From NCBI GenBank assembly GCA_045537795.1, contig JAZSQE010000068.1:56252-120251 (forward strand): a stretch of 64,000 nucleotides of DNA. Direction: 5' to 3'. The DNA is from Kiritimatiellia bacterium (GTDB lineage: Bacteria; Verrucomicrobiota; Kiritimatiellia; RFP12; UBA1067). Made by a program: the position numbers and the translations under genes. Of this stretch, positions 22,097 to 51,998 are shown piece after piece (within the stretch, counting starts at the first letter, position 1; each line of letters starts with the position of its first letter). Below the pieces are notes generated by a model, which was not told where the DNA came from, did not search any database, and was given only the letters and a program-made list of their open reading frames with translations.

Positions 22097-22129
22097 TTTC
22101 TGAACTCCTTTCAATAAAGCGTTTGTTCA

Positions 22130-23578: not shown

Positions 23579-23638
23579 TAACCCGCCGACAACCGCAAGA
23601 CGCCGACGACCGCAAGCGCAACCTCCGGCGCGAATTTT

Positions 23639-23647
23639 TGGTATAAT
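23639..23647 (+). promoter_or_regulatory. Extended -10 promoter TGGTATAAT placed 8 nt before an ATG (leaderless-type arrangement)
   Basis: The sequence is TGGTATAAT-tggagact-ATG(23656). The GGAG lies only 3 nt from the ATG, so it is poorly placed to act as an SD. Confidence 0.5.
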
Positions 23648-23655
23648 TGGAGACT

Positions 23656-24783: not shown

Positions 24784-24793
24784 GTCAACGGCG

Positions 24794-25675
24794 ATGAAAT
24801 GCGAAATATGCGATAAGAACGACGCCCAGACGGCGATCACCGTGACCGACGGCGACGGCGAAAAGGAGCTTTACGTCTGCAACGCCTGCGCCGGCGCCGA
24901 AAGAAAGAAGCGCCAGAAGAAGAGCCTGCGCACGCGCAAGATCGGCAATCTCCCTCCGGGAATGTCGATAACCGTCAGCGGCTCGGCGGGGGACGCGCCG
25001 CCGCCTTTCATCGGCGCGATTCTCGAGGCGGTGGGCGGGATGGTCGACAATCTCGAAAAAGCCAGCCGGAAAAACTGCGAAAAGCGCGATGCCGAATATG
25101 TAAAACTGCCGCTCTCGCGCGTCAAGCGCGAATACCGCGTCGCGTCCTCGCTCCATCTCGAGGGGCTGCATCTCATCGGAGAAATGGAAGCCGTGCAGCG
25201 CGCCGTCAAGGCGCTCGGGATGAAGCTGACGGGCATCGACATCGACGGCATCAGGTCGGCAGGTCACGTATATCAGCTGGAATACAGCGGCGCGCTCGAG
25301 CGGGCGAAACGCTTTGTGAGCGATCTCCTCGAGCAGGAGCGCAACGCGCGCGTGAGGCTCTTCGAGGAGATGCCGCGCGTTTTCGGCGATTCGCTCTGCA
25401 GGGCGCTGGCGATTCTGAAGAACTGCCGGCTCCTTTCTCCGGGCGAACTTTTCGATCTTCTCTCGCCGCTCAGACTCGCGGCGCTCGAAAACATGCTCGA
25501 AGGAACCGATCTGGCGACAATCGAAGAAATGATTTCGAACGTCGACCTCTCCGGGCGGGAGGAACATCTCCCGAACGAAGAGCGCGACAGGCTTGACGCC
25601 GAACGTGCCGACAGGATAAACGCCGTTTTCGAGGATGTCGTCCTCAACGAAACAGCCGAAGGGAAATTTCTGTGA
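24794..25675 (+). CDS. Hypothetical protein with an N-terminal CxxC...CxxC zinc ribbon (McsA-like N-terminus), translationally coupled to clpC
   Basis: I trimmed the start to MKCEICDKNDAQTAITVTDGDGEKELYVCNACAG at ATG 24794, with the extension lying inside the upstream gene. The remaining roughly 250 aa are helical and I do not recognise them. The stop overlaps the clpC GTG start as GTGA at 25672-25675. Confidence 0.7.
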   Translation: MKCEICDKNDAQTAITVTDGDGEKELYVCNACAGAERKKRQKKSLRTRKIGNLPPGMSITVSGSAGDAPPPFIGAILEAVGGMVDNLEKASRKNCEKRDAEYVKLPLSRVKREYRVASSLHLEGLHLIGEMEAVQRAVKALGMKLTGIDIDGIRSAGHVYQLEYSGALERAKRFVSDLLEQERNARVRLFEEMPRVFGDSLCRALAILKNCRLLSPGELFDLLSPLRLAALENMLEGTDLATIEEMISNVDLSGREEHLPNEERDRLDAERADRINAVFEDVVLNETAEGKFL

Positions 25676-35527: not shown

Positions 35528-37741
35528 TTAACGTTGCAGTTTTCTCAGAAAGGTCGCGGCCTGACGCGCGGGCTGACCGCCCGGATATTCTTCGAGAAGC
35601 CGCTGGAATTTCGATATCGCGTCATCCCGTCTGCCCATGCGGTGGCAGACGACGCCCCACTTCAGAAGCATCTCGTCAAGCCACGGCGCGTCGGGATAAT
35701 CCTCGAAGACGCGCTCGAGCGTCTCGTTGGCACGGGTGTAGTCGCGCGTCGAAATGTAGTAGTCGATGACGCGCTTGTAGCTGTCGCCGGCGTATGAACT
35801 CGAGGGATACGTCTCGGCGCAACGCTTGAAAGCGAGCATCGCCGCGGAAAAATCAGGCTTGCGCCGGTCCCTTCTCTGCTCGGACAAGAGACGGATGCGC
35901 TCTTCTATGGCCTCGCCGATGCGGAACTGCGCCTCGGCCTTGAGCGTCGAATTGGGCAGATTGATGACCGCGTTGTAGACCTCGATCGCCGAGTAGAGCG
36001 ACTCGAGCGTCTTCTCGGTGCGGCGGGCGTTGGCGATCTGCATGAACGCGCGGTCGGCGAGCGCCGTGTCGGGATAACGCTTCACGAGCGCGCGACATGT
36101 GGCGATGGCGTCTCTCAGCCTGCCCATGACAAGATGGAGATTCCACATGACTTCATACGCCTCTTCGATGACGGAGCGGTCGAGCGAGAAACGGCGGGCA
36201 AGATCCATGAGTTCGCCGACGCGCTCAAGCCCCTCCTTGGCCTTCGACGTTGCGCTCGCCTCAAGACCTACATCCTTGAAGATCGTCGCCCATTTGTAAA
36301 GGAGCTGGGCTTCGAGAAGAAGTTTCTTGGACTGAACGGTCGCTTCGCTCGAATGGGCGACGATCGACTGCGGCTCGGTCGAGCCGCCGACGAGAACGAA
36401 CGCGTCGGCCGTGCGCATGATCTTGTTCGTGCCGCCGAGGTGCACCGCATCTTCGTATTCCGCGACAACCTTTTCTTCGGGGTTGACGCCTATTTCGCCC
36501 GCGGGGAACTTCACCTTTGCAGGTTCGTTCGTGCCGGCGGGGAGAAGACGCGTGACGAGCCGGCCGGTGAAGATGCCGCTTCGCGGCGAGGTTTCAACGA
36601 GTTTTACCTTGATCGAATCACGTTCGATCCACGGCGCGTCGGGAGCGGGCGGGGGCGGGGGCGTGCCCGGTTCGGCGTCGGCCGGCAGTTCGGGGCGCTC
36701 GCGGTAGAAGACCTTGATCGCCACTTCGGCCTCGTCGATCCTGTCGGAGACGTCGAGGTCGAAATCCCTGAGGCGGATGAACGCGGGCTGATCGACGAAA
36801 ACGCCGCGCACGCGCTGGCGCTGGGCGCCGTCCATGAACGAAATCGAGGCGGACGACACGATGCTCGCGCCCGCCGCGCGCGTGATGTCCTTGCGCCCGT
36901 CCTCGGTGTTGGAGTCGACATACTTGACGGCTATCTTCTCCGCCCCGTGGACGGTCAGCCTGCCGTCGCCGCTCGCCGTGGGTTCGCTTGTCGTTTCGAC
37001 GGACGCGAGAAAGTCCCCGTCGCCGCGGCCGAAGGGAACGAGTTCGGCGCGTTCGCGGTCACCCGACATCGAGCCGAGTTCGACGTGGCTTTTTTCGCCG
37101 AGCGAAGCGAGAACGGCGAGGTCTTTGTCTTTGACGTGCACGAAAACGCGCTGGCCGGCTTCGGCGAGAACAACACGGTTGGTGAGATCGTCGACAGGCA
37201 CGGCCGTGCCGACCATCGCGAACGCTTCCGCCGCGCGCGTGTAGCGCCCGGCTTCGAAGTGGATCTCGCCTATGGTGAAGAAGGCGTCGTTCGAAAAATC
37301 GCTCGTCGGATATTCCTGCGTGAGCTTTCTCAGCGTCATGACGGCCTCGCCGGGCTTGCCGCGCGCGAGCTGGAGCTTGCCTTCGAGAAGAAGCGTCTCG
37401 GCGAGCTCTTCGTTATCGGCGCTCTTCGCGGACTTCCTGAGTTCCTGCTGGGCGTGGTCGAAATCGCGCTTCTCGAGATAATGCCTCGCGAGCGTGAGAG
37501 ATGCGGTGAAGCGCGCCTTCGAATCGGGGTACATGCGCCAGACGGCTTCAAGCATGCCGATCGCACGCTCGTCTTCGCCGGTCTCGAAAAGCGCGGCGGC
37601 GTTCTTGACCATGCGCTTGGCGCGCATTTCCACCTTGTCCTTGTCGATACGGGCGGTGCCCTTCGCCGTGCGCTGCGGCGGCGCGGCGAGAAGCGAGGCT
37701 GAAATTGCGAGTACGGCCGTTGCCAGAATTTTCTTCTTCAT
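35528..37741 (-). CDS. Secreted TPR-repeat protein (737 aa) with BamD/YbgF-like TPRs flanking two beta-rich insert modules
   Basis: I trimmed the start to ATG 37741 (MKKKILATAVLAISASLLAAPP), which has a GAAAGG SD. YP-type TPR motifs recur: MYPDSKARF, EYPTSDFSNDAFF, RYPDTALADRAF, TYPSSSYAGDSY, DYPDAPWLDE and EYPGGQPARQA. There is also a Pro-rich linker (GTPPPPPAPDAP). Confidence 0.85.
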   Translation of the reverse strand: MKKKILATAVLAISASLLAAPPQRTAKGTARIDKDKVEMRAKRMVKNAAALFETGEDERAIGMLEAVWRMYPDSKARFTASLTLARHYLEKRDFDHAQQELRKSAKSADNEELAETLLLEGKLQLARGKPGEAVMTLRKLTQEYPTSDFSNDAFFTIGEIHFEAGRYTRAAEAFAMVGTAVPVDDLTNRVVLAEAGQRVFVHVKDKDLAVLASLGEKSHVELGSMSGDRERAELVPFGRGDGDFLASVETTSEPTASGDGRLTVHGAEKIAVKYVDSNTEDGRKDITRAAGASIVSSASISFMDGAQRQRVRGVFVDQPAFIRLRDFDLDVSDRIDEAEVAIKVFYRERPELPADAEPGTPPPPPAPDAPWIERDSIKVKLVETSPRSGIFTGRLVTRLLPAGTNEPAKVKFPAGEIGVNPEEKVVAEYEDAVHLGGTNKIMRTADAFVLVGGSTEPQSIVAHSSEATVQSKKLLLEAQLLYKWATIFKDVGLEASATSKAKEGLERVGELMDLARRFSLDRSVIEEAYEVMWNLHLVMGRLRDAIATCRALVKRYPDTALADRAFMQIANARRTEKTLESLYSAIEVYNAVINLPNSTLKAEAQFRIGEAIEERIRLLSEQRRDRRKPDFSAAMLAFKRCAETYPSSSYAGDSYKRVIDYYISTRDYTRANETLERVFEDYPDAPWLDEMLLKWGVVCHRMGRRDDAISKFQRLLEEYPGGQPARQAATFLRKLQR

Positions 37742-37761
37742 GTTCTTACCTTTCAAAACGA

Positions 37762-39408
37762 TCAGTGGACTTCATTGATGACCGCGCCGCCCGTGGCGAC
37801 ACCGAGGCGCTCGAGCTGCTGGTGAGCCTGCGAAGACTCCCAGGTCTTCTTCCATTCGGGCTGGCGAAGCAATCTCTTGTAGAGCGCAATAGCCATCTCC
37901 TTTTCGCCGTCGGCCTCGCGGTACTGCGCCATCTGGTAGACCGCCTTGGCGGCGTAATCCGGGAACATCGACATGAGTTCCGTGAGAGCGGCGTAGCTCT
38001 CCTTCTTCTTGTTCGCGGCGCGGTACGCGTACTGAAGTTCCCAGAGCGTGCGGGGCGGATCGGAAAGCTCCACATATATCTTGATCGCCTTTTCGTACTC
38101 CTTCGTGCGGTCTCTGTAAACCCACCCGAGAGTATACTTGACCCTGACCGAAAGATCCGCGTCGGGCCCTTGACTTAAGCACTCCTCGAGATCGAGGGCA
38201 GCTGCCTTCCAGTCGCCGGCACGGCTGTCGATTTCATATTTCAGCCATGCGCGCGAAGGCGCACCGTCGACGGCGGGCACGAGAAGATGCGCCGCTTCGT
38301 ATAAACGGTTATCGGCGAGCGTGATCGCCACGTCGCGAGCGTGCTTCGAGCGGCGCACGGTGTTTTTTTCAGCCATCAGACTCTTCACGAGTTCGTCGGC
38401 GCTCGCTGAAATTTCCTTGCGCGAAAGAAGCCCGATCTGAAGACGGAAGATCGCCGTGCGCGATTCCCACACAAGGCCGCCATCCTCCATAATCTTTCTC
38501 ACGCTCATGGCCCAGGCGAGAAACGCGCGGTTGAACTTCTCGATCATCTCGCTGCGCTTCTTGGGGTTTTCGCATTTTTCGATAAACCACCTGCCGAAAA
38601 AGAGATGACTGTGTTGGAGATAGGTAATCTTCCAGCCTATAGTGTCGAGAATCGCCTGCGCGCGCTTTTTGCTGTCTTCGCCGCAATCAATGAGAACCAC
38701 TCTTTCCATCTGCTGGAAATTCTGCATGATCGCATACGCCTCCCGAAGCCTCGAGCGGGATGAAGACCAGGTGTTGTAAACGACTTCTTTGAAACCGCCG
38801 AGAACTCGCTCCCAGTATTCGATCGCTTCGTCTATCTTGCCGGCGGTCCAGAGACGGCAGGCGCGATCGTAGAGCGCGAGCGCCATGACGGGCTCCTTGG
38901 CGCACGCCTCGTCGTCGATCAGCTCGTCGATGATGACATCGCCCGCCTTGGTGTCACCCATATCGATCTTCGCGCGACCCATCCAATACGTCGCGTTCGC
39001 CGCGATCCACTTCTCATCGCCGTAGAGGTCAAGCATTTCAAGATAAAGCCTGACGGCCTCGTTGCGGTCTCTGGCGAGATGCCTCGAGAACGCCTGCATA
39101 AAGGCCACGTATCCGAGAAGAGAAGCGTCCGAAGATTCGGCCTCCGCCTGAATCTGCACCTTCTTCCACTCGGCGGCGGCCGCGCGGAATCTCGTCACCT
39201 GCTGCTGCGCCGAGAGCCGCCCTCCGCCGCGCGCATCGTACGCTTCGCCGAATATTTTTGCGGCGCGGTCTACGCTGGCGCGGATCGTGAATTCGAGATT
39301 GCGGTACACCTCGCCCGGCATGCGCCACGTCCATTCGTAAACGCGCGCGTCGCACGTGAGCACCGCCGCGATGGCGATTACGGCTGTCGAGACAAGTTTC
39401 TTCATCAT
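37762..39408 (-). CDS. Secreted all-helical TPR-like repeat protein (548 aa), function unknown
   Basis: The signal peptide is MMKKLVSTAVIAIAAVLT. The rest is a helical-repeat sequence (..AIEYWERVLGG.., ..AIKIYVELS.., ..AIALYKRLL..). The start overlaps the giant gene's stop as ATGA. Confidence 0.8.
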   Translation of the reverse strand: MMKKLVSTAVIAIAAVLTCDARVYEWTWRMPGEVYRNLEFTIRASVDRAAKIFGEAYDARGGGRLSAQQQVTRFRAAAAEWKKVQIQAEAESSDASLLGYVAFMQAFSRHLARDRNEAVRLYLEMLDLYGDEKWIAANATYWMGRAKIDMGDTKAGDVIIDELIDDEACAKEPVMALALYDRACRLWTAGKIDEAIEYWERVLGGFKEVVYNTWSSSRSRLREAYAIMQNFQQMERVVLIDCGEDSKKRAQAILDTIGWKITYLQHSHLFFGRWFIEKCENPKKRSEMIEKFNRAFLAWAMSVRKIMEDGGLVWESRTAIFRLQIGLLSRKEISASADELVKSLMAEKNTVRRSKHARDVAITLADNRLYEAAHLLVPAVDGAPSRAWLKYEIDSRAGDWKAAALDLEECLSQGPDADLSVRVKYTLGWVYRDRTKEYEKAIKIYVELSDPPRTLWELQYAYRAANKKKESYAALTELMSMFPDYAAKAVYQMAQYREADGEKEMAIALYKRLLRQPEWKKTWESSQAHQQLERLGVATGGAVINEVH

Positions 39409-42400
39409 TCAAGCCCTTCGAAGGATTTCGCTTCCTGCAGAAGAAGACCGCGGGCGCGGCGGGCCCATTCGGTTTCCGGATATTCGAACACCGTGCGCTT
39501 GAGATAGAGATACGACTGTTCGAAATTGCGCACTCTCAAAGCGGTGTCGCCGGCCCAGTAGAGCGACTGCGCGCGCATCGCGGGCGGAGCGCTCTCGGCG
39601 TACTTCTCCGCCACGTCGGCAAACGCCACGACGGCCTTGCGGTACATCTCGCTCGCATCCCGGCACAAGCCCTTGTAGGCGGGATGTTTCTCCATGAACG
39701 CCTTCTGCGTGACCTCGGCCTGCTTGACGTAGCAGCTGCCGCTCATGAAGAGCGCTCGCGGCGCCTTCTCGTGTGTCGGGAAGCGCTTCTGGAAGTTCTG
39801 GTATATCTTGCCGGAGATGTCGTAGCGCTTGGCCTCCTTGTAGTAGTAGGTCGCCAGACGTATCGTCGCATCGCCGACGAGTTCGCTCTCGGGATAGAGA
39901 TAGGTCATCTTGACGTACTCTTCGGACGCGCGGGCGTAGTCGCCAAGCATTTCAAGACAGAGCGCCTTGTGGTACTGGCTGCGCGCGGCAAAGGCGCCGT
40001 CGGGCCAGCTCGAGAGAATCGCCGAGAAACGCGCGAGCGCTTCGGTGTAAAGCGGCGTAGCCGCGACCATGTCCTTGGCGTCCTTCTTCTCGGTCGCGAG
40101 TTCCTGATAAAGGTTGGCGAGGAGAAATTCACCCTGCGCGAGGTGCGATGAGTCGGGATAGTTCTTCAGAGCCTCTTCGAGGATGTGCTTGCCCTCGTCG
40201 ATGGCCTTGGTGCTGCGCTCCTGCTGTTTGAGCTTTCTGTGTTCCTTGGCCTGCTCGAAGAGACATTCCGCCAGACGGAACTGAACGAGAACCGCGGCGT
40301 CGGAATCGCGGAAGCGCTTCGAGAACATTCTCACGGAACCGTCGGACCCGCGGAAGACGCTGCCCGTCACGCAGAGCGTCTGCGCCGGAGTTCCCGGGAG
40401 AGTCAGGTCGTCGCGGTACGAGAAGACCATCCTGTCGCCGTACTTCTCGCTCGGACAGGTGCCGGTGAAAATCCCCGAATGGGGCAGCGTCTCGGTGAGG
40501 CGGATCGTATTCGTCGTGCCGCTTACGAGACCGACGGCCCTGACGTCGATCAGATCCGCCGCGTCGCTTACGTCGCGGTCGGCGTCTTCGACCTGAATGA
40601 AGAACTTCTCGCCCACGTGCGCGGCATCGCGCGGCGCGGTATAGGTGGAATCCATAAGCGTGAGCGACGCGTTGGAGACGAGCTTGAGCGTGCGGGAAAG
40701 CAACGGCTCGCCGTTTTCGTCCAGCACTTCGATCTTCACCATGTCCGCGCCCGTGACGCCAAGTTCGGGATCTTCATCCTCGGCGAGCGTCGTGTTCGGA
40801 TCGGGCGGCCCCATGCGGAGTTTGACGAGCGTGTTGAAGCTGCCTGCCGCATACGCCTCCTTCGCGGACTCGTCGCCCTTGCGCAGATAGAAACCGGGGA
40901 AGCGCTGAGCGAGTCTCATCGGTATCTCGATCGACTCGGTGGCGCTCGAGGCACGCAGCGTTATCTTGGACGCGGCATGACGCGCGCGCGCCGGATCGTT
41001 GACCCTGACCGGAATCGGCGTCGAGACGTTGACGGGGATCGGCTCCTTCGAAGAACTGATCCGGCTTGTCATCGGCACGGCGTGCAGGACGTCTCGGTAG
41101 AGAGCCTTGACGTTCTCGTTGCCGGCGCGGCGGCGGATTTTTTCAAGCTGCGCCTTGGCGGTCACGGAATTGTCGACTATGCGGGTGCGGCGCGTGTGGA
41201 AGAGCGTCACGTGCGGTTCGCCCTTCTTCGCGGCCTGAACCTTGTCGGTGCGCACGAACGGCACGCCGGGATTGGTATTCTCGCGGTCCTCGTAGGCGAG
41301 CGTGAGCATATCGTCGCTCCGGACTTTCAAGGCGCCGGCGGGAGCTTTCGGATCATCCGCGGCGGCCGTCTTCACAAGAGCCATGAAAAGACCGCTGTGG
41401 ATGCCGTCGAGCGTGTCGCCGTTGAGCGAGACGCCTTCATAGTACTTCGACTGTTCGATGAGAGTGATCTCCTTGCTTTGGCCGGATTTCGTCGTGACGA
41501 CGGCCTTGATCCTGTCGGCCTCCGGCGTCAGATCGCCGTCCGCGTCGACGACGGAAGCGATGATGACATCCCCCGGCTGGAAGCGGAAAGCCTTGTAGAG
41601 GCGCTGTCTTTCCCAGCCGCCTTTCGTGACTTCGGTCTGCTCGAAGAAGAAGTTGACCCTCGCGTTGTTGAACGAGCTTCTGAGGTTCTTCTGGAGGACG
41701 CGCTTTTCCCCGGACGAGGTGACTTCGTCCTGATACGTGACGAAGATGGAATCGCCGGGCGCGACTTCGAGATTGTCGTTGCGCTGCGCGTCCGAGAAGT
41801 CGCTCTCGCACGGAATGATCGTCTCGCCTTTGGCATCGGTGACGGTCATCTTCGAGACCGTGACATCCGGCCCGGTGCGGTCGGCGAATTCCCACCTGAG
41901 CGATCTGAGACGCACGGGTTTGGGGAAGACGGCCGAGAAGCCGTCGTCCGTGCGCGAAATGACGGCCTTGTCCTCGAGGAACTTGACGATCGAGGAGTGC
42001 TTTTCGGCGTCGAACCAGTCGTAGGGAATCGCCTTGGCATCTTCGCCCACGGGCTCCCAAAGGATGTCGAAGGAATCTTCTTTGAGAAGCGCGGAGGCGA
42101 AAAGCTCGAAGCGGTGCGCGCCGGCCGGCACGTCGAAAGTGACGATGCGGTTGTGGAGCGAGGCGCCCTGACCCTGAAAAACCTGCTCGCCGTCGAGATC
42201 CATCGCGATCCAGAGATTGCGGAACGTGTCGCCCTGGGTGTTTTGGGCGACGATCCTCAGACGCATGTAATCGTAATTCCCGGGCTGGTTGAACGCCGCA
42301 GACCAGTACATCGTAGAATTGCGGCGGTTGCTGTGCGTAGCGGTGTATGTAAAGTTGGAGACATTCATCTCCTTCGGCCCTCTCACGCGGCCGAAGCGCG

Positions 42401-45400
42401 CGCGGATGGAGTTCGCCGATCGCAGACGGATGCCGTCCTCGCGCTGGAACTTGATGCCGATGCGCTTATTGACATTTTCCGCCGGAAGCGAACCGAGGCG
42501 TATCGTCTCCGTGCCGAGCCGGCCGACGAGCGTGACGGCGCGGATTTCCTGCGAGTTTTTGATTCTGATCGTGGCGTTTGAGACACGGTGCGAGGCCATG
42601 GTGTCGACTTCGATCCATTTGCCGGGCTGCCCGTCGGCAAGGCTGCGCCATTCGCCGGACTTGTTCTTGTTGATGACGTCGCCGGAATTAAAGCCCGCGG
42701 CGGTGTCGCTCGCGAACGCTCGCGGCGGCGGCAGCGATGTCGGAATCTGCGCGCGGAAGACGCCCGAATACGGCTTCGTCTCCTTGAGCATGACGTTTTC
42801 GAGCGTGTCGCCGCTCGTCGTCTTCACCGAGACCGGCACCTCGCCGATGCCGTTCTTGCCGGCGGAGCAGTCCTTGTCCTGCACGAAGATGTAAAGCGGA
42901 TTGCCGGGTCTCAAGGCGCTTGAAACGACCGACGTGTCTAAAACGCCTTCGAGCGAATCTTCAAGGGCGCTCTGCGTATCCTTCTCTTCTGCGCGCGGAG
43001 CGCCCGCGCCGATGGAGAGCTTCGCATCGTCGATGACCCTGAGAACCTTGGGCTTGTTGAGCGGCAGGCCGCGCGCCTTGAGGAACTCCGGCTCGATCAC
43101 GTACTGCGCGACATCGTCGCCCTGCACTTCGAGGACGAGGTTCGACGGAAACGCCGCCGCGAGCCTGACGTCGATGACGCCCTTGAACAGATTGGGGTCG
43201 CGCGACGAGGGATAAAGAAGAATGCGCTCGGAGTCGCCGCCGGGCTTCGCCGTCAGGATGACGGGGATTGAAGCGCCGCCGCCCGCGACGGAAAGGTTGC
43301 GGTCCTGAACGGTAATCGTGAGCTGCTGTCCGGGGCGGATGGCCGTGCGGTCCGAGAGATCGCCGATCATGACGTCGGTATCGTCGACTTCATTGTTGGT
43401 GGCGAGTTTCCACTTGCCCTGGAGGAATCGCGCTTCGGTGTGGGTGAAGTCGATCGCGAAGACTTCGCGCAGTTCCTTGATCGTTTCGTCATAGTCCTTG
43501 CGGTCGAAGGCTATGCGCGCGGCAAAGTAGTGCGCCTGCGCCTGAATCTGGGTGTCGGGCTGGCTGAGCCAGTATTCGATCGTCGCTTCGGCCCCGGACG
43601 TGTTGCCCGTCTCGATCATGAGGTCGACGGCGCGGAACATCGCCTGTCGCCCGGCCGGCGTCGAGTTGTACTTCGGGTTGTTGCGGATCGACTGGTATTC
43701 GAGCTTCGCCGCTTCGAAGTTCTGCTGATCGCGGAAGCACTCCGCCCTGACGAGAAGCATGGCGGCCGCGAGGTCGGCGATGACGCGGGCCTCGTTGCCG
43801 AGGATGGCGGTAGCGATCTGACGGGCCTTGATGAGATTTTCATCCTTCGCGCCACGGTCGAGACGCAGCTGCTCGACGCCCCAGGCGGTGAAGTCGGGCG
43901 GCAGATTGATCGCCTCGCGTTCGAAGACGGCGATGTTTTTCTTCAGAAGCTCCCACGCGCGCTCGCCGTTCTTGCGCGAAAGCTCGTCGGCCGCGACGTA
44001 AAGCGGATATGCGGGATTCTTCTCGTCCACGGGATAGATGCCGGGCAGTTTAGGCGCAGCCTCGGCGCGCACGCGCGAAGCGAATGCGACGGTCGACGAA
44101 TCGCGATCCGCCGGAACGGAATTGGCCATAAGATAGGCGCTCTCCCAGAAGCCGGCGTCACGAGTCTTGGTGAGGAGATTCCTGAACGCACCGTAGTTCC
44201 AGTGCCAGACGCTGGCGCCGAAAGTAGCGGCGCACTCCGCCATCTTGAACGTATTGGAGGCGGCGAGCGACTCGGCGTATACGTTCTGGTAAGCGATGCA
44301 GTGGTAAACACTGTCGGGGGGCGCTCCGCGGCAATTGCCGTTCATAAGTTTCACGCCCTGACGATACGTGTCAAGGAGAGTTTTCTGGACTTCCTTGTTT
44401 TCTCTGTTGGCATTGCCGTAATTGTAGAGAGCATCCCAGCTTTGCGTATCTCCAAGATCTACGAGCGGAAACTCGTTAGACTTGATCGCGCTCAGCGCAG
44501 GGATGACATGCTCACGGAGAAACGGCCCCATACGGTCCTTGACGCCGGCTTCTACCGCCGCCTTGTCACGCGGGAAGGTTATGATTTGATACATTCCCAC
44601 AAGAGCGAAAATCCTGGACGCTTTAGGAACGGAATCGAGTTTATTCGCGGCGGCGAGATAAGTTTTGAGAGCCTCGTCACCTCTGCCGACGGCGGCAAAC
44701 ATGTTGAGCATAACTCTTGCGGCACGTCCGCTATTCGCAACATCGGCGTCGACGATTTTCGCGAGAGCCTCATTCCAGGGAAACGCCTTCACGACTTCCG
44801 GCTTGCTCAAGCGTGACGAGAAATGGCGCGAAACATTATCGATCAGCCAATCACCGGGGATTCTGAAGCCGGGATGCTTGAAGAGCAGATTGAGCGCTTC
44901 AAGCATATCTTTCTCCGACTTGATTCTTCCATGGTCGAACTGACGCGTGATAAACGAAGCGAAAGCGTCGAAGTTGGCCTTGAAATAATCAATGTCCTTA
45001 GGCAGAGCCCCGATCGATGAAGGAATATTGCAGCCCAGGAGCGACGAATAGTCTCCTGTAACCTTAGCTCTTTTTTTATTGATTGCCCATACTATGCCCT
45101 CGTTCTTGGCATTGCGCATAGCCAAACCGCACATGTGGTTGAGCCCGTCCCAGTATCCATAGCCGTTACCATAAATATCCTTGGTCACCTCAATGTATTT
45201 GGCCGCCGAATTGGGCTCTCTTTGACAGAGCGCATAATATCTATAAAGTATGGCATGCATCGCGCTTGTACGGGATTTCGCCTTGTTCGCAAGAGCGATA
45301 TATGCCTTGATAGCGTCGGCAACGACTTTATGCGCTTCACCAGGGCATACGCCCCCGCTTGCGTGTTTGAGCGAAGCAATCTTAACGAGCGCGGCATATA

Positions 45401-46901
45401 TAGGATCGCTCGACACGACTGTGGGCTTAATAGTCGCAAGAAACGCATTACCCTCCGGCGTATTTAAGAATTTATAATCCTTCTTGGCTTTTTCTGCGCC
45501 CTTGCCGATAAGGAATTCCCAACGCTTGCCGTGACCCGTCAATTTATAGAAGCCCGTGACCATCTCAACCTTCTGCTTGTCGCTCAGATTTTTGCACCGC
45601 GCGGCGCTTGAGAGAATTGCACCGACATCAGGAGCGAGAACATCATTAGAAATAGATTCCTCAAGCGTCGACTTTACGATGGTCGTTTCACCGTATTCGG
45701 CAAGCAGATAGAGCGTATTCCAGCGCACCAGGTAGCGGTTATCGGCCCTGGCCAGAAGATCCTTGAGAGGCTTGATGGATTTCTGTTTGGAGACCTCCGC
45801 CTGAACTCCGGACAGATTGTAGAGATCAACAGCGGAGAAAACTTTCGGATTTTCACGCGAGTACGCAACGATATCCGCAGGAAAAACAGCTTTATGTGCA
45901 ATAAACTCGCCAATAACCCCCTCACAAACGCTGCGCCCCGCAGCAGTTGCGGGAATGGCTTTAACAAAACGCTTTATAAACTCAACATTGGCCTTTGACT
46001 GCTCGGCGGTAGCGCTGAGCCCATCACCGAGATAACGCGCATAACGCGCATAGAAGCGGCCGAACCACTCTGCAGAATGAAGGTATAGGCTATCGGGCTT
46101 TTCGCCGCCTTTCAGATAGACGTTTTCAAGCGCAATGAAATCCTTAATAAGTTTTTTGCGAAGTTCGGCATCTTTGACTTCACCCAGTCTGGGCATCATG
46201 CTGTTAGGGATGTAGTTAAAAGGCAAACGCACTTTATATTTGGTGGAATAATCGACGATCCACTTCGCATCAAGCTCCTTACCCCTCCAGTTGATGAACG
46301 TATTGACAGGCTCACTGCCGGCGAGTTCCGGGTATTTAAGAAGAAGATCGAGAGAATCTTTAAGGGAATACCCTGGCGCATTCTCCCACTTGAAGTTGTA
46401 AAGATCGCCAGCGACCGAAAGCCGCTTGTTTTTTTCGGTGAATTTTTCAAGCAGCGTACCTGCCACTGACATGAAGTCGGACGTGCGCTTCTCTGACTTA
46501 AAACGAGAGAGAAGGAGCTTTCCGGCGCGATAAAGAAGCGGCGAAGCCGGCACGTTCTTCGCTAACCTCGCAAACTCGCGCGCATCGGCGGAAGCGACGC
46601 AAAGCTCCCATGCGGCCTGCTCGGTCTCCTTTGTCCACTTTTTCTCAAGAGCGAGAAAACGCGCGAGCCTATCGCGCCTCAGCGAAGCCTTGCGCGTCTG
46701 GCGGGCGACCTCGGCCGCCTGCCAATATCTGATGGGCGCAAGTTTAGCCTTCTTCTCTGTCAGCTGCCGAAACGCGCGCTCGGCCGTAAGAGGCTTGCCT
46801 TCGTTAAAGGCTTTAACGAACGTAGCTTCAAGATCTCCCTCGGCGAACACGGCGGTGAACGCGGCGACGGAGCCGAAAATGCAAAGGGTCTTTTTCATCA
46901 T
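39405..46901 (-). CDS. Giant secreted protein (2498 aa): helical N-terminal third, TPR block, multiple beta-sandwich-like modules, C-terminal BamD/YbgF-like TPRs
   Basis: A single uninterrupted ORF with the signal peptide MMKKTLCIFGSVAAFTAVFAEG. The C-terminal TPR motifs are NYPDSSHLAQGEF, SWPDGAFAARSQY, LYPESELVGDATI, RFPTHEKAPRALF and EYPETEWARRA. One segment (GKWIEVDTMASHRVSNATIRIKN) weakly recalls an F5/8-type-C (discoidin) domain. I recognised no catalytic motif. Confidence 0.88.
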   Translation of the reverse strand: MMKKTLCIFGSVAAFTAVFAEGDLEATFVKAFNEGKPLTAERAFRQLTEKKAKLAPIRYWQAAEVARQTRKASLRRDRLARFLALEKKWTKETEQAAWELCVASADAREFARLAKNVPASPLLYRAGKLLLSRFKSEKRTSDFMSVAGTLLEKFTEKNKRLSVAGDLYNFKWENAPGYSLKDSLDLLLKYPELAGSEPVNTFINWRGKELDAKWIVDYSTKYKVRLPFNYIPNSMMPRLGEVKDAELRKKLIKDFIALENVYLKGGEKPDSLYLHSAEWFGRFYARYARYLGDGLSATAEQSKANVEFIKRFVKAIPATAAGRSVCEGVIGEFIAHKAVFPADIVAYSRENPKVFSAVDLYNLSGVQAEVSKQKSIKPLKDLLARADNRYLVRWNTLYLLAEYGETTIVKSTLEESISNDVLAPDVGAILSSAARCKNLSDKQKVEMVTGFYKLTGHGKRWEFLIGKGAEKAKKDYKFLNTPEGNAFLATIKPTVVSSDPIYAALVKIASLKHASGGVCPGEAHKVVADAIKAYIALANKAKSRTSAMHAILYRYYALCQREPNSAAKYIEVTKDIYGNGYGYWDGLNHMCGLAMRNAKNEGIVWAINKKRAKVTGDYSSLLGCNIPSSIGALPKDIDYFKANFDAFASFITRQFDHGRIKSEKDMLEALNLLFKHPGFRIPGDWLIDNVSRHFSSRLSKPEVVKAFPWNEALAKIVDADVANSGRAARVMLNMFAAVGRGDEALKTYLAAANKLDSVPKASRIFALVGMYQIITFPRDKAAVEAGVKDRMGPFLREHVIPALSAIKSNEFPLVDLGDTQSWDALYNYGNANRENKEVQKTLLDTYRQGVKLMNGNCRGAPPDSVYHCIAYQNVYAESLAASNTFKMAECAATFGASVWHWNYGAFRNLLTKTRDAGFWESAYLMANSVPADRDSSTVAFASRVRAEAAPKLPGIYPVDEKNPAYPLYVAADELSRKNGERAWELLKKNIAVFEREAINLPPDFTAWGVEQLRLDRGAKDENLIKARQIATAILGNEARVIADLAAAMLLVRAECFRDQQNFEAAKLEYQSIRNNPKYNSTPAGRQAMFRAVDLMIETGNTSGAEATIEYWLSQPDTQIQAQAHYFAARIAFDRKDYDETIKELREVFAIDFTHTEARFLQGKWKLATNNEVDDTDVMIGDLSDRTAIRPGQQLTITVQDRNLSVAGGGASIPVILTAKPGGDSERILLYPSSRDPNLFKGVIDVRLAAAFPSNLVLEVQGDDVAQYVIEPEFLKARGLPLNKPKVLRVIDDAKLSIGAGAPRAEEKDTQSALEDSLEGVLDTSVVSSALRPGNPLYIFVQDKDCSAGKNGIGEVPVSVKTTSGDTLENVMLKETKPYSGVFRAQIPTSLPPPRAFASDTAAGFNSGDVINKNKSGEWRSLADGQPGKWIEVDTMASHRVSNATIRIKNSQEIRAVTLVGRLGTETIRLGSLPAENVNKRIGIKFQREDGIRLRSANSIRARFGRVRGPKEMNVSNFTYTATHSNRRNSTMYWSAAFNQPGNYDYMRLRIVAQNTQGDTFRNLWIAMDLDGEQVFQGQGASLHNRIVTFDVPAGAHRFELFASALLKEDSFDILWEPVGEDAKAIPYDWFDAEKHSSIVKFLEDKAVISRTDDGFSAVFPKPVRLRSLRWEFADRTGPDVTVSKMTVTDAKGETIIPCESDFSDAQRNDNLEVAPGDSIFVTYQDEVTSSGEKRVLQKNLRSSFNNARVNFFFEQTEVTKGGWERQRLYKAFRFQPGDVIIASVVDADGDLTPEADRIKAVVTTKSGQSKEITLIEQSKYYEGVSLNGDTLDGIHSGLFMALVKTAAADDPKAPAGALKVRSDDMLTLAYEDRENTNPGVPFVRTDKVQAAKKGEPHVTLFHTRRTRIVDNSVTAKAQLEKIRRRAGNENVKALYRDVLHAVPMTSRISSSKEPIPVNVSTPIPVRVNDPARARHAASKITLRASSATESIEIPMRLAQRFPGFYLRKGDESAKEAYAAGSFNTLVKLRMGPPDPNTTLAEDEDPELGVTGADMVKIEVLDENGEPLLSRTLKLVSNASLTLMDSTYTAPRDAAHVGEKFFIQVEDADRDVSDAADLIDVRAVGLVSGTTNTIRLTETLPHSGIFTGTCPSEKYGDRMVFSYRDDLTLPGTPAQTLCVTGSVFRGSDGSVRMFSKRFRDSDAAVLVQFRLAECLFEQAKEHRKLKQQERSTKAIDEGKHILEEALKNYPDSSHLAQGEFLLANLYQELATEKKDAKDMVAATPLYTEALARFSAILSSWPDGAFAARSQYHKALCLEMLGDYARASEEYVKMTYLYPESELVGDATIRLATYYYKEAKRYDISGKIYQNFQKRFPTHEKAPRALFMSGSCYVKQAEVTQKAFMEKHPAYKGLCRDASEMYRKAVVAFADVAEKYAESAPPAMRAQSLYWAGDTALRVRNFEQSYLYLKRTVFEYPETEWARRARGLLLQEAKSFEGLE

Positions 46902-46910: not shown

Positions 46911-46919
46911 ATATTACCA
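46911..46919 (-). promoter_or_regulatory. Extended -10-like element TGGTAATAT placed 9 nt before the giant gene's ATG (leaderless-type arrangement)
   Basis: The reverse complement of atattacca is TGGTAATAT, giving TGGTAATAT-tgtgaaatc-ATG(46901). There is no SD. Confidence 0.45.
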
Positions 46920-48183: not shown

Positions 48184-50415
48184 TCAGTCCTCGTACATTT
48201 CGTTCGTACCGAAGCCGAACGCGCGCAGATACACGGCGAAACCGTAGCTCCAGTCGTGATCGTATTTCGAGCCGTCGATGCGCGTATAGCCGTTTTCGTA
48301 TTCGCAGTAGACTCTGAACGCGAGACAGTCGGTGCGGTATTCAAGTCCGAGCGACACGACATCGAGTTCGTTCTCGGTGCAGTCCCAGCTTATGCCGAAA
48401 TCCCACTTGAACTCGTCGCAGATCTCATGATCGAAGCCGATCGTGGCGGTGCTGAAGTAAGGGTGGTTGAATTCGTCATCCTCCATCTTTTTGGAGTTGT
48501 ACGGGAAAACGGAATAATCCCACCAGCGGTGCTGACGGTGCGTGAAATCCACGTTGTACGAGAAGGCTCTGCTGAGCTTATGGCGCCACATCACGGAAGC
48601 GAGCGCGATTTCGTCGTCTTCGCTGTTGTACTCGGCAAGAACGCCGAGCATGACATCTTCGGCGGGTGTCCACCTCGCGCGGAACCCGGGCACGGCGACG
48701 ACGTCGTCCTCGCCGTAGTTCGGCTCACCCGGCTTGGTGATTCTGCGCTTCAAAGAAGACCTCTCGAACCATTCGGTGTCGTTGAACTGCAGCGCGACGT
48801 AAGCGTCGAAGTCAAACATTGTCACAAGACGCCCCTTCTCGTCGATCGTGCGCAACGCGTTGCGTACGCCGGGCGTCACGCCGTAGTACGTGTGCGGCAG
48901 ATTGCGCCCGCGACCCGCGAACTGGTCCTCCCACATCGTCGACATGTCGAGCGCGTCGAAGACGTAGGGCATCTCGCCGTCATCGATCCCCGACCAGTCG
49001 GCCTCCTGCGCCAAAACGTCGAAATACGGCTCGATGAGATGCTGCCAGTTTTTGTCGAGCCACGCGGTGCCGCGGCCCGCGAAAGTGATTCCGCCTTCGA
49101 CGATCGACCTGAAAGCCGCGTCGTCCGTGCCGCCCGCCTTTCTCATCCCGTCGAAAACCGCATTTCCGGCCTCGCCGTAATACGTGCCGCGCCAGCCCGC
49201 GCGCGGAGCGACGGAGAGAACATCCCAAAGTTTGAACGGCGCAGTCAGGCGGTGGTACGTATCGAGTCTGAACGTTCCGTATTGAGCCCACTTGCCGGGA
49301 TTGTAGGAATACACGCTGTCGGCGCGCGAGTAATGGGCGGCGCTGCGGCGCATATACCCGGCGCGGTTCTGCGATTCGTAATTGACGGGCAGCGTCCACA
49401 CGGGCCGGGGGAGAACGTCGAAATAGAATTCGGGCAGTCTCATCGTCCCGCCGTAGACGTCGTTGAGAGGCCCCGCGACGCTCGCGCCGTAGGCGTAGCT
49501 GTTTTCATTGTGTTCCCATGCGAGCTCGTTGCTGTTTCTGCCCGCCCACCTGTGACGCAGCGAAAAAAGCCTGTCGCGCAGGAAATCCTCGTCGAAATAG
49601 GAGTCGGACATCAACATCCCCTTCAACCTCACCGTATCACGCTCGGTAGCCTCCCAGCGGTGTTCAAGGCTTATCGCGTAGCGTTCCTCGGGCACATCGC
49701 TGCCGAAGTTGTATCTGTTTCCACCGTGTCTGTACTTGCGGCGGTCGCGCCTGTCATAGTCGTCATCCCACGCGTGATACACCTTGAACTTGCCCCTGCC
49801 GAATTTGCCCAGCCCCCACCCGAGCGTCTGCCCGAGCGCTATGCCGTTTTCCTTGCGAAGATCCAGGCGCGTGTTACCCGAGAGCCAGTACGATCCTTCC
49901 GAGTGCGATCTGTCGCCCGCGATCGGGTAGACGTACTTCGTCAGAAGGTACGTACCCCAGCGGCTCGCGTAACCGGGCATCATACGAAGGCCGTAGTCGG
50001 TCTCGAGCGGATACCAGAAATACGGCACCCACGCAACCGGATATTCCATGAAATTGAGCCACACGTTGCGCATCACGATGTAGTCGCGGTTTTTGAACTC
50101 GACTTCGCCCTCGGCCGACCAATGCAGATGCCCGGGACAGTTCGTGCACGTCGTCACCTGCGTACCCTCGGCGAGGCGGATGAGCCCGTCCGCTTCGCGG
50201 CGCGCCGATTCGCTTCGCATGATGATCGGCTTCATGACGGCCGTCACGTTACCCGTGGCGACCATGGCCTTCGTCACGTTGTCGACGGCCATCCTGTCGG
50301 CGCTGATCGTGAGATCGCCTTCTTTGAACGCCGATTCCCTGGCGAGACGCTCGAGCATACCGTACGCGAGCGCGCCCGAAAAAACGACCGCGAGAAAAAG
50401 ATATTTTTTCATCAT
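48184..50415 (-). CDS. lptD: LPS-assembly outer-membrane protein LptD
   Basis: I trimmed the start to MMKKYLFLAVVFSGALAYG, whose ATG overlaps the rng stop. The N-terminal OstA-like jellyroll (..ISADRMAVDNVTKAMVATGNV..) is followed by a long beta-barrel with an aromatic-rich sequence. Confidence 0.85.
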   Translation of the reverse strand: MMKKYLFLAVVFSGALAYGMLERLARESAFKEGDLTISADRMAVDNVTKAMVATGNVTAVMKPIIMRSESARREADGLIRLAEGTQVTTCTNCPGHLHWSAEGEVEFKNRDYIVMRNVWLNFMEYPVAWVPYFWYPLETDYGLRMMPGYASRWGTYLLTKYVYPIAGDRSHSEGSYWLSGNTRLDLRKENGIALGQTLGWGLGKFGRGKFKVYHAWDDDYDRRDRRKYRHGGNRYNFGSDVPEERYAISLEHRWEATERDTVRLKGMLMSDSYFDEDFLRDRLFSLRHRWAGRNSNELAWEHNENSYAYGASVAGPLNDVYGGTMRLPEFYFDVLPRPVWTLPVNYESQNRAGYMRRSAAHYSRADSVYSYNPGKWAQYGTFRLDTYHRLTAPFKLWDVLSVAPRAGWRGTYYGEAGNAVFDGMRKAGGTDDAAFRSIVEGGITFAGRGTAWLDKNWQHLIEPYFDVLAQEADWSGIDDGEMPYVFDALDMSTMWEDQFAGRGRNLPHTYYGVTPGVRNALRTIDEKGRLVTMFDFDAYVALQFNDTEWFERSSLKRRITKPGEPNYGEDDVVAVPGFRARWTPAEDVMLGVLAEYNSEDDEIALASVMWRHKLSRAFSYNVDFTHRQHRWWDYSVFPYNSKKMEDDEFNHPYFSTATIGFDHEICDEFKWDFGISWDCTENELDVVSLGLEYRTDCLAFRVYCEYENGYTRIDGSKYDHDWSYGFAVYLRAFGFGTNEMYED

Positions 50416-51998
50416 GATTGAGAGTATAGCACTTGTGAGGTGGCCGCGTCCAGTATGGAGAACGATTCGGGATGGCGGTGAAGCTCCGAAACGAACGTCA
50501 GACGCGTATTGAAATCCTTCTGCAAAGCGGCGAGAATTTCGCTGTCTTCCGTCCTCAAACGCTGCATCACCTGCGGCGCGATGACGATCTTCGGCTCGAA
50601 AGGCCGCTTCTGCGCTTCGGCTTTCTTGAGCAGCGAAATGAGATGGCGCTGTATCTCGACCGAAATCGCCATGGGCGATTTGACGAGCCCGCGCCCCTTG
50701 CAGTACGGGCACTTCGAAGTGAGCTGCGAGAGAATCGAGCGGTCCTGACGCTGACGCGACATTTCGAGAAGCCCGAGCTCCGAAATCTCCAGCACGTTCG
50801 TGCGCGCCCTGTCGCGCTTGAGCGCTTCCTTGAGCGCGCGGTAGACTTCGCGCTGGTGCTTGCGGCTTTTCATGTCGATGAGGTCGAGTATGACGAGCCC
50901 GCCGATGTTCCTGAGCCTGAGCTGGCGCGCGACTTCTTCGACGGCTTCGAGGTTGACCTCGAGAATCGCGTCCTCCTGCGAGCCGTTGCCCTTGTAGTGG
51001 CCCGTGTTGACGTCGACGGCGATGAGCGCTTCCGTCTCGTCGATGACGAGATAGCCGCCCGACTTGAGCGGCACCTGCCGCGCGAACGCGTCGTGAAGCT
51101 GCCTTTCGAGCCCGTAATGCTCGAATATCCCCGAACCGCCGTCATAGCGGCGGATCTTCGACTTCGCGCGGCGCGAAATCTTGCCCGCGACCTCGCGCAT
51201 CTCGTTGAAGCTGCGCTCGTCGTCGATGACGATCGAGTCGACGTCTTCGGTGAGCCAGTCGCGGATGACCCTCTCGCACAGATCCGGCTCCTGAAAGATG
51301 CAGCACGGCGTGCGGCGCGTCCTGATGTTGCCCTGCATTTCGTTCCAGATCGAAATGAGGTTCCTGAGGTCGCGCGCGAACGCCCGCGCCGACGCGCCCT
51401 GCCCGGCGGTGCGCACGACGAGTCCGACGTTCTCCGGGAGCGGCAGCTTGTCGAGAATCTTCTTCAGGCGCTGGCGCTCCTTCGCGTCGCCGATCTTCTT
51501 CGAGACGCCGCGCGTGCGCGTGCCCGGCATCATGACGAGATAACGCCCCGGTATCGAGAGGTTCGCGATCGTGACGCGCGGCCCCTTCGTCGAAATGGGC
51601 CCTTTCGTCACCTGGACGATTATCTCCGAGCCCGGAGGAAAACGCTTGGCGATCTCGGCGTCGGAGAGACGGTTGGACTTCTTCTGGTTCTTTCTGCGCG
51701 AAGCCTGATCGTCGTCGTCGTCGAGAAACGCGTCCACGTCGGGGAGCATATCCCAGTAGTGGAGAAACGCGTTTTTCTTCAGCCCTATGTCAACGAACGC
51801 CGCCTGCAGATCGTTCTCGAGATTCTGCACGCGCCCTTTGAAGACGCTCCCGACGAGACGTTCGGCCTCGTCATGTTCGACCATGAACTCCTCGAGTCTG
51901 CCGTTCTCCAGAACGGCGACACGCGTATCGAGTTTTTCTACGTTCACGATTATTTCGCGCTTGAGCTTCGAGCGCTTAAGCCATCCGAATAGGTTCAT
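50412..51998 (-). CDS. rng: Ribonuclease G/E family (Rng-like)
   Basis: The S1 domain is GSVFKGRVQNLENDLQAAFVDIG. It is followed by ..LVIDETEALIAVDVNTG.., the DNase-I-like catalytic region. Confidence 0.88.
   Translation of the reverse strand: MNLFGWLKRSKLKREIIVNVEKLDTRVAVLENGRLEEFMVEHDEAERLVGSVFKGRVQNLENDLQAAFVDIGLKKNAFLHYWDMLPDVDAFLDDDDDQASRRKNQKKSNRLSDAEIAKRFPPGSEIIVQVTKGPISTKGPRVTIANLSIPGRYLVMMPGTRTRGVSKKIGDAKERQRLKKILDKLPLPENVGLVVRTAGQGASARAFARDLRNLISIWNEMQGNIRTRRTPCCIFQEPDLCERVIRDWLTEDVDSIVIDDERSFNEMREVAGKISRRAKSKIRRYDGGSGIFEHYGLERQLHDAFARQVPLKSGGYLVIDETEALIAVDVNTGHYKGNGSQEDAILEVNLEAVEEVARQLRLRNIGGLVILDLIDMKSRKHQREVYRALKEALKRDRARTNVLEISELGLLEMSRQRQDRSILSQLTSKCPYCKGRGLVKSPMAISVEIQRHLISLLKKAEAQKRPFEPKIVIAPQVMQRLRTEDSEILAALQKDFNTRLTFVSELHRHPESFSILDAATSQVLYSQS

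Follow-up and report, generated by a model that had tools for sequence, protein, structure and literature searches.

A trio of exported TPR/β-sandwich proteins from a Kiritimatiellia bacterium as a probable scaffold module of a Ton/Tol-class envelope machine

Introduction

With which cellular machinery do three consecutive genes for large exported tetratricopeptide repeat (TPR) proteins in a Kiritimatiellia bacterium work? The genes lie on the minus strand of a 64,000-nucleotide stretch of DNA (assembly GCA_045537795.1, contig JAZSQE010000068.1, positions 56,252 to 120,251 of the forward strand), referred to here as the window, and encode proteins of 2498, 548 and 737 amino acids (aa), which we call the giant, the 548-aa protein and the 737-aa protein and, collectively, the trio. 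A sequence-only reading of the window had suggested, judging in part from the neighbouring genes, that the trio forms a large structural complex of the periplasm or associated with the outer membrane (OM), which might coordinate wall growth and OM biogenesis or bind substrate at the cell surface, and had found no described system with this architecture. From domain searches, predicted structures and a census of related loci, we conclude that the trio is probably the periplasmic scaffold module of an envelope machine of the Ton/Tol class, driven by the proton motive force (pmf), conserved across Kiritimatiellia and other lineages of the Planctomycetes-Verrucomicrobia-Chlamydiae (PVC) type, and detached from its motor in this genome. 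PVC bacteria (Kiritimatiellia, Planctomycetes and Verrucomicrobia, including Akkermansia) are major degraders of complex and sulfated glycans and, to our knowledge, the mechanisms by which they take up large polymers are largely unknown.

Results

The trio is conserved as a unit and is usually adjacent to an ExbB/ExbD motor

The three genes had been read as consecutive and linked, and the list of open reading frames (ORFs) agrees exactly:

39405-46901, minus strand: the giant gene, 2498 aa (ORF list and translation).
37762-39408, minus strand: the middle gene, a signal-peptide TPR-like protein of 548 aa (ORF list and Pfam).
35528-37741, minus strand: the third gene, 737 aa counted from its ATG (ORF list and translation).

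The stop codon of the giant gene and the start codon of the 548-aa gene share four nucleotides (ATGA, 39405-39408), and the 548-aa and 737-aa genes are separated by 20 nt (37742-37761); an alternative TTG start for the latter is present at 37756. Full-length homologues exist for each of the three, which puts chance ORFs out of the question. The member with the highest conservation is the 737-aa protein, with 51-89% identity among the 120 clusters listed and 48-79% identity across gut lineages; one of its homologue clusters is labelled Kiritimatiellae and two were named 'TolA-binding protein' by JGI. The giant has 12 full-length homologues (43-94% identity), and the 548-aa protein, the fastest evolving of the trio, has 11 homologues in a word-indexed search, down to 36% identity.

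Related loci were collected from three sources: (i) a scan of one genome per species, which gave 36 loci, all in Kiritimatiellia-type metagenome-assembled genomes (MAGs); (ii) an exhaustive profile search with the 737-aa family, which gave 214 cluster representatives at E<=1e-30; and (iii) a metagenome scan (gut, freshwater, marine, hypersaline and sediment), in which 80 loci were kept of 215 relatives. The total was 115 unique loci, and the denominators used below are the loci informative for each feature. The trio has been kept together: the gene immediately upstream of the 737-like gene is 548-like in 85 of 95 informative loci and the giant is adjacent to these two genes in 71 of 87 (60 upstream, 11 downstream); the co-occurrence of the three genes thus extends beyond this genome. 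An ExbB/ExbD motor is adjacent to the trio in 66/86 informative loci, and the linkage of trio and motor is the ancestral and dominant state. Two loci, L001 and L005, carry the trio genes in unchanged order, and directly behind them come a MotA/ExbB-family gene, an ExbD pair, a small ORF and a gene for a DUF4159 protein. This conserved partner set, i.e. TolQ/ExbB, two copies of TolR/ExbD, a TonB-like protein and DUF4159, was missed by the sequence-only reading because its genes lie outside the window.

More distant homologues (22-30% identity) share this type of cluster and lie on planctomycete-like contigs beside PSCyt2, PSD1, DUF1501 and DUF1800 genes, which are typical of Planctomycetes. The large proteins of the distant loci are true collinear homologues of the giant (432 bits in L042, 230 bits in L044 and 142 bits in L043). 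A tblastn search of annotated plasmids with the 737-aa protein gave no match.

Two further arrangements were seen. The MAG RGIG9514 (Kiritimatiellae, JAGBWQ01) carries two separate giant-548-737 trios (L030 and L032), neither with an adjacent motor in the available DNA. In three loci from gut lineages (L003, L004 and L022) the 737-like gene stands alone, in L003 between gidA and a Mg-chelatase-like gene; neither giant nor motor is adjacent, and the cluster is therefore dispersed there.

The trio proteins are exported, non-enzymatic and built from TPR and β-sandwich modules

All three proteins begin with a Sec-type signal peptide, as had been noticed in the window, and reading of the homologous sequences gave the same result for nearly all of them, including an N-terminal hydrophobic leader in every giant homologue. 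The leader of the 548-aa protein contains the residues LTC, and lipoprotein status was considered for it and ruled out; the Cys is not conserved among homologues and the trio proteins are therefore not lipoproteins. With one exception in the giant, described below, the Pfam and NCBIfam matches of the trio are all to TPR families of the YbgF/BamD kind (TPR_6, YfiO, TIGR02795 ybgF and the BamD-type TIGR03302). No catalytic domain was found in any of the three with Pfam and NCBIfam, in agreement with the lack of catalytic motifs reported before. The trio proteins are exported, non-enzymatic, scaffold-type TPR/β-sandwich proteins.

An AlphaFold2 (AF2) model of the 737-aa protein, built with 22 homologues, has a mean pLDDT of 82 and contains the following parts, in which Ig stands for immunoglobulin:

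37214-37642, minus strand: N-terminal TPR block, aa 34-176 (AF2 helices; TPR_19 and TPR_21 matches).
36392-37171, minus strand: two Ig-like β-sandwich modules, aa 191-450 (AF2 model, Foldseek and profile search).
35534-36343, minus strand: C-terminal YbgF/BamD-type TPR block, aa 467-736 (PF13525 at 7.3e-15, TIGR02795, TIGR03302 and AF2 helices).

The C-terminal block scores 118 bits with TIGR02795 (cut-off 90) and 99.9 bits with TIGR03302, each a sum over several TPR stretches, four in the case of TIGR02795. When the model was compared with the PDB using Foldseek, the β part matched the Ig-like arrays of a Nitrosopumilus S-layer protein, and the helical parts matched generic TPRs, among them those of BamD, LapB and one of the TPR proteins in the flagellar periplasmic scaffold of Campylobacter.

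In the giant, the signal peptide is followed by a variable region of ~920 aa, a conserved TPR block, ~8-10 Ig-like or macroglobulin (MG)-like β-sandwiches and a C-terminal TPR block:

46839-46901, minus strand: signal peptide, aa 1-21, MMKKTLCIFGSVAAFTAVFAE (read from the sequence).
43392-44069, minus strand: internal conserved TPR block, aa ~945-1170 (weak TPR_Slam and PrsT TPR matches at aa 1021-1163; dense invariant columns).
40347-43391, minus strand: chain of Ig-like/macroglobulin-like β-sandwiches, aa ~1171-2185 (AF2 model, Foldseek).
39408-40346, minus strand: C-terminal YbgF/BamD-type TPR block, aa ~2186-2498, the most conserved part (Pfam, NCBIfam, invariant columns).

In an alignment of the 12 full-length homologues the N-terminal ~920 residues are poorly conserved and residues ~945-1440 strongly conserved. 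The C-terminal block matches PF13525 YfiO (2.8e-8), TIGR02795 (9.8e-20) and TIGR03302 (2.9e-18), and the block at aa ~945-1170 aligns with the N-terminal TPR and first β module of the 737-aa protein. The AF2 model of residues 1170-2200 is an all-β chain of ~8-10 sandwiches (pLDDT 69, good from residue ~260 of the fragment). Its top Foldseek match is the Nitrosopumilus S-layer protein 8c8m_A (E 3e-17), followed by the MG arrays of complement and bacterial α2-macroglobulin, and no enzyme fold appears among the matches. The exception to the TPR-only matches is a weak NCBIfam match to an anammox S-layer family over ~170 residues of the giant (aa 1705-1873). BLAST comparison of the giant with itself detected no internal repeats at E<0.01, because the β modules are too diverged, and a sequence search of the PDB gave no matches for the giant-family profile or the 548-aa protein. 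The giant and the 737-aa protein thus have in common the arrangement TPR - β module ... β module - TPR, and the earlier description of TPR arrays framing β-rich inserts is borne out by the AF2 models and the YfiO/ybgF/BamD-type matches.

The β module of the 737-aa protein (profile positions ~190-350) is also found, in up to 32 copies, in further giant proteins whose contexts are unrelated, among them P0212 (6140 aa), P0259 (4788 aa), P0280 (5134 aa) and P0237/P0296 (1886 aa, Candidatus Poribacteria). This Ig-like repeat is widespread and has no name; its signature is v-D-x-D ... E-T-x-x-x-S-G-x-F.

The S-layer Ig arrays and α2-macroglobulin MG arrays at the top of the structural matches would suit a motor-independent lattice, in which the trio alone forms an S-layer-like sheet or a protease-trap-like array at the surface or in the periplasm of this lineage. 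Moreover, 14 loci from gut sub-lineages have kept an intact, conserved trio with no motor adjacent to it. Set against this, the S-layer family model scores 30 bits with a cut-off of 1400, Pfam detects no thioester, bait region or other macroglobulin hallmark, and the linkage to the motor is ancestral and dominant, all of which makes such a lattice very improbable.

The genes adjacent to the trio in related loci encode a Ton/Tol-class motor with a peptide-ended TonB-like protein

The ExbB-like protein of the related loci scores higher with the TolQ model (117 bits) than with the ExbB model (87 bits), but lies below both cut-offs and therefore belongs to a distinct branch of the family. It is followed in L001, L005 and L042 by two distinct PF02472 (ExbD/TolR) proteins, and the gut loci give two separate ExbD matches by tblastn. 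The small ORF after the ExbD pair encodes a conserved, TonB-like family of 123-210 residues, with a 'PD(E/D)L(L/M)' motif and a single transmembrane (TM) helix containing S-x3-H (His33-35), the signature by which TonB and TolA bind stators. The linker that follows is variable (Ala/Glu/Lys-rich or charged) and the C-terminal peptide is acidic and conserved, i.e. PPEVxPLPPKxxFxYGDDLxLD-COOH in gut lineages and ...ERPxxSSxxLDELD-COOH in deep lineages. The small protein has no globular domain, no vWA domain and no Pfam or NCBIfam TonB_C match. As it lacks a C-terminal domain, the conserved terminal peptide is the likely coupling element. In L001 (13762-14394) and L007 (13748-14368) the TM helix of the small protein is followed by an additional Cys-rich segment (CQYCG...C...C), which is absent from the others; a weak match of this segment to an anaerobic sulfatase-maturase model was judged spurious.

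The next gene encodes the DUF4159 protein, a polytopic membrane protein with an Ala/Lys-rich segment of its own. The sole PDB match of its DUF4159 domain is an uncharacterised structural-genomics entry, the Haliangium protein 4i66. A conserved OM or pilus component 3' of this gene was sought and rejected, since the downstream genes vary by locus; a TPR protein of ~660 aa occurs there occasionally. No TonB-dependent receptor is present in the clusters examined. On one planctomycete-like contig (L043, 20577-22103) the cluster is followed by Tad-pilus genes (prepilin peptidase, TadE and Tad), and in L064 (17596-19062) by a sulfatase.

Similar parts are found in the Agl-Glt machine of Myxococcus, which combines one TolQ-like protein, two TolR-like proteins and TonB-like anchors with OM barrels, cytoplasmic parts and several TPR proteins, a giant among them. 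One ExbB/TolQ, two ExbD/TolR, single-pass TonB-like proteins and several TPR proteins, one of them a giant, are likewise the parts of the trio clusters, which might accordingly drive surface motility or adhesion. A role in gliding has been proposed for transducers of PVC bacteria (PMC12204202). Nevertheless, the clusters contain no OM β-barrel and no cytoplasmic Glt-like components, and the likeness is one of parts lists; we regard a motility or adhesion machine of this kind as improbable.

Another possible output is a PVC-specific apparatus that captures large glycans or glycoproteins, brings them into the periplasm and scaffolds periplasmic enzymes, as a functional equivalent and possibly a homologue of the mul1A locus of Akkermansia. 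Although inconsistent across loci, the Tad-pilus and sulfatase flanks are suggestive of polymer capture and use. The lineages carrying the trio are glycan degraders, the variable N-terminal ~920 aa of the giant are what would be expected of a part facing substrates or partners, and the Ig/MG-like arrays are similar to modules of adhesins and S-layers. In Akkermansia, mul1A (Amuc_0544) is described as a mucin transport gene whose loss lowers colonisation ~100-fold (PMC12570417), and nine carbohydrate-active enzymes (CAZymes) associate with Mul1A (bioRxiv 10.1101/2024.03.27.586211). According to the supplement of an omics study, MreB (Amuc_0540) and Rne/Rng (Amuc_0541) adjoin this locus, Amuc_0543, Amuc_0544 and one further gene are hypothetical, and ExbD/TolR (Amuc_0546) and MotA/TolQ/ExbB (Amuc_0548) come next (PMC11480725). 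However, the products of Amuc_0543-0545 are annotated as 'hypothetical' rather than TPR; the MUL1 synteny is reported to be missing from aquatic Akkermansiaceae (PMC13174399), while the trio cluster is widespread in aquatic metagenomes; and the cluster contains no OM channel, carbohydrate-binding module or CAZyme. Polymer import is an output that we favour only tentatively.

The cell-wall and LPS neighbourhood of the window is lineage specific

The sequence-only reading had placed the trio among genes for wall growth and lipopolysaccharide (LPS) export, and most of these identifications stand: Pfam finds MreB, MreC, PBP2, RodA, RNase E/G and LpxK upstream of the trio, and alkaline phosphatase (after a 13-nt gap), YibE/F and MetH downstream. 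What was not confirmed is the label lptD for an 842-aa ORF between rng and lpxK (48184-50712, minus strand), for which neither Pfam nor NCBIfam gave a match. Inspection by eye suggests a divergent LptD-type protein, a putative assignment; its likely true start at residue 100/101 gives the signal peptide MMKKYLFLAVVFSGALAYG.

The proposal that the trio coordinates wall growth and OM biogenesis with these neighbours is not supported by the related loci. In no other locus are lpxK, rng, mreB, PBP2, rodA or phoA near the trio, except for phoA in L006, the nearest relative (79% identical). The cell-wall/LPS neighbourhood is lineage specific and the apparent link is incidental. It is phoA, and not a tolQ-like gene, that comes after the 737-aa gene in the window.

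These results also bear on whether the machine might substitute for Tol-Pal, i.e. carry out OM tethering or constriction in PVC bacteria without TolA or TonB, with the 737-aa protein as an enlarged coordinator of the CpoB/YbgF type. The score of this protein above the ybgF cut-off, the JGI name of its homologues, its housekeeping-like conservation across gut lineages, the closer match of the ExbB-like protein to TolQ and the position of the trio after mreBC-PBP2-rodA-rng-lpxK in this genome are all consistent with such a role. Tichowtungia has no discernible TolA or TonB (PMC12204202). On the other hand, neither a TolB nor a Pal/OmpA-type gene occurs within the cluster or beside it at any of the loci examined, the cell-wall/LPS neighbourhood is not conserved, and the 737-aa protein, which has β modules and no coiled-coil, is unlike CpoB and scores 55 bits with the CpoB equivalog model NF008068 (cut-off 383). 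We consider a role in tethering or division doubtful, and rank it closely after polymer handling.

The remaining features of the window concern the region upstream of the trio and its wider surroundings. An extended -10-like motif had been proposed as a promoter of the trio:

46911-46919, minus strand: TGGTAATAT, extended -10-like motif ~10 nt 5' of the giant ATG (consensus match in sequence only).

The motif is present at 46919-46911 but close to the ATG, and it is absent from the output of a promoter scan; it is no evidence of function. A second giant ORF (57249-63959, minus strand, 2236 aa from a GTG start) lies directly upstream of mreB; neither Pfam nor NCBIfam gave a match for it, it is not similar to the trio, and a signal peptide is not visible at the listed start. 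Two genes for GFO/IDH/MocA-type oxidoreductases (17087-18628 and 20609-22114, both minus strand), one with a GH109 C-terminal domain, fit a glycan-degrading lifestyle. Two ORFs between secY and a gene for a ClpA/B-type ATPase (236 aa, 23548-24258, minus strand; 373 aa, 24554-25675, plus strand) have no significant Pfam match.

Discussion

The trio proteins, exported scaffold-type TPR/β proteins encoded by a conserved trio of genes, very probably form a large periplasmic complex, in line with the sequence-only reading. We further propose that this complex is the partner of the motor encoded next to it in most related loci. In this scheme the stator would turn proton flow into a pull on the small TonB-like protein, whose C-terminal peptide might dock in the TPR groove of the 737-aa protein or of the C-terminal block of the giant, and the Ig-like chain would pass force or a conformational change across the periplasm towards the outer membrane. 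TPR grooves are classic receptors of terminal peptides, as in EEVD and PTS1 recognition.

Several points weigh against the assignment of the trio to a pmf-driven machine in this genome. The motor was scored as not adjacent in 20 of the 86 informative loci. Fourteen of these are from gut sub-lineages of 58-64% identity, the window's own group; five have 33-39% identity and downstream flanks of 1.5-3.2 kb, which may be too short to reach a motor; and in the last, L044, DUF4159 and a TPR gene come first and an ExbB gene follows further downstream. The window belongs to one of the few gut sub-lineages in which the trio is separated from the motor: no ExbB, ExbD or DUF4159 gene is present within the 64 kb, and we assume that the motor is encoded at another site of the chromosome. 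No OM barrel or secretin belongs to the cluster in the loci examined, and the target of the force thus lacks a conserved candidate. Gene linkage is not the same as physical interaction, and the docking of a peptide in a TPR groove is something that we infer purely by analogy. Finally, the published transducer of PVC bacteria has a vWA domain (PMC12204202), in place of which the small protein of the trio loci has only its short conserved C-terminal peptide.

With these points taken into account, the trio is still probably the scaffold of a Ton/Tol-class machine, and the possible outputs can be ranked. Energised uptake and handling of large polymers in the periplasm is our first, tentative choice, Tol-like OM tethering or division comes close behind, and gliding, adhesion or a motor-independent lattice are less likely. 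A bolder version of the first choice is that the trio and its partners (TolQ, two TolR, the TonB-like protein and DUF4159) constitute a PVC-wide, receptor-independent pmf machine, which would bring intact polysaccharides or glycoproteins into the periplasm and retain the degradative enzymes there, with force handed over by the C-terminal peptide of the TonB-like protein in a TPR groove, and with mul1A of Akkermansia and macromolecule uptake in Planctomycetes as instances. This is speculative, and on balance we think it unlikely in its full extent. If it were true, the hand-over of force from a peptide to a TPR would be a new mode of coupling. The analysis defines a set of ~8 conserved genes, with family profiles and a concrete coupling hypothesis, and makes the energisation of the outer envelope or polymer import in PVC bacteria a directly testable genetic and structural question.

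Comparison with known systems

CpoB, which binds TolA of the TolQR motor and is encoded after pal in tol-pal, has ~260 aa, with a coiled-coil at the N-terminus and TPR at the C-terminus; BamD, an OM lipoprotein with a lipobox Cys, has ~245 aa and five TPRs. The trio resembles CpoB/YbgF and BamD/YfiO in its TPR subtype (TPR_6/YfiO, with the Y/F/W-P-x-S/T/D signature) and in its periplasmic place, and the 737-aa protein lies above the cut-offs of both TIGR02795 and TIGR03302. It differs from CpoB in its equivalog score, its length and β inserts, and in having no tolB or pal nearby. The trio differs from BamD in scoring 16.5 bits with NF008119 (cut-off 363), in having no conserved lipobox, in the size of its proteins (548-2498 aa) and in the absence of a bamA context.

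Among proteins of known structure, the flagellar periplasmic scaffold of Campylobacter (PDB 9hmf), in which TPR proteins surround a stator of the MotAB family, and the archaeal S-layer (PDB 8c8m), with its chains of Ig-like domains, are similar in fold only, at 8-18% identity. Unlike in Campylobacter, there are no flagellar genes at the trio loci, and the S-layer model NF052345 (Kustd1514-type) reaches its 30 bits, against 1400, over one 170-aa stretch of the giant. The likeness to α2-macroglobulin and complement consists of Foldseek matches to MG arrays at 8-10% identity, with no A2M or thioester match in Pfam. Membership of the trio in the CpoB, BamD, S-layer or α2-macroglobulin families was thus ruled out, as either the equivalog models or the defining features fail. 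In keeping with this, the trio is not assigned to a characterised machine, the Foldseek results for the 737-aa protein and the giant fragment being ones of fold likeness only.

Among Ton systems, TonB2 and TonB3 of Vibrio use a canonical TonB with a C-terminal domain, which acts on TonB-dependent receptors for iron. The small protein of the trio loci, by contrast, has no TonB_C domain, ends in a short peptide and belongs to clusters without a TonB-dependent receptor. The Vibrio systems resemble the trio loci in being motor operons of the Ton type with an essential accessory TPR protein (TtpD, alongside TtpC; PMC6957404), and differ in that they are not known to include a giant TPR/Ig protein or DUF4159. 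The Agl-Glt machine differs in its OM barrels and cytoplasmic parts, which are not seen in the trio clusters.

The mul1A locus of Akkermansia likewise belongs to a PVC bacterium, places uncharacterised exported proteins beside ExbD/TolR and MotA/TolQ/ExbB, and, like the trio in the window, adjoins mreB and rng. Mucin import depends on it, and periplasmic enzymes associate with it. ExbB and ExbD genes lie beside mul1A and, in most orthologous loci, beside the trio, but not in the window. The differences are that the mul1A genes are annotated as hypothetical and not as TPR, that the order is ExbD ... ExbB, and that MUL1 is reported to be gut-specific (PMC13174399) while the trio cluster is widespread. 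The resemblance in gene content is striking and extends to the position of mul1A beside mreB and rng, which echoes the order mreB ... rng ... trio and could be a coincidence or an ancient PVC synteny. The comparison is one of annotations, and we treat the relation to MUL1 as a lead rather than a finding.

The closest counterpart is a synteny described in Tichowtungia and other PVC bacteria, in which a TPR gene is followed by a tolQ-like gene, a pair of tolR-like genes and a force transducer (Mol Biol Evol 2025, PMC12204202). According to its authors the TPR gene is uncharacterised and no deletion phenotypes exist, and the transducer has a TM helix of the SHLS type (His ~35), a disordered linker and the vWA C-terminal domain mentioned above. 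The two clusters are alike in their occurrence in PVC/Kiritimatiellota and in the order of a TPR gene, a TolQ/ExbB-like gene, a heterologous TolR/ExbD-like pair and a single-pass protein with an SHLS-type His near residue 35. They differ in that the paper has one TPR gene, whereas here there are three TPR/β proteins, including the 2498-aa giant, and a polytopic DUF4159 protein follows. As the small protein has no vWA domain, its correspondence to the published transducer is incomplete. The claim that no described system has this architecture therefore holds in part: the motor synteny had been described, but that description includes neither the giant and the 548-aa protein nor the TonB-like protein that ends in a peptide. 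The published TPR gene lies directly before the tolQ-like gene, as the 737-like gene does in the 66 of 86 informative loci with an adjacent motor, though not in the window, and the 737-like gene is very probably the same gene.

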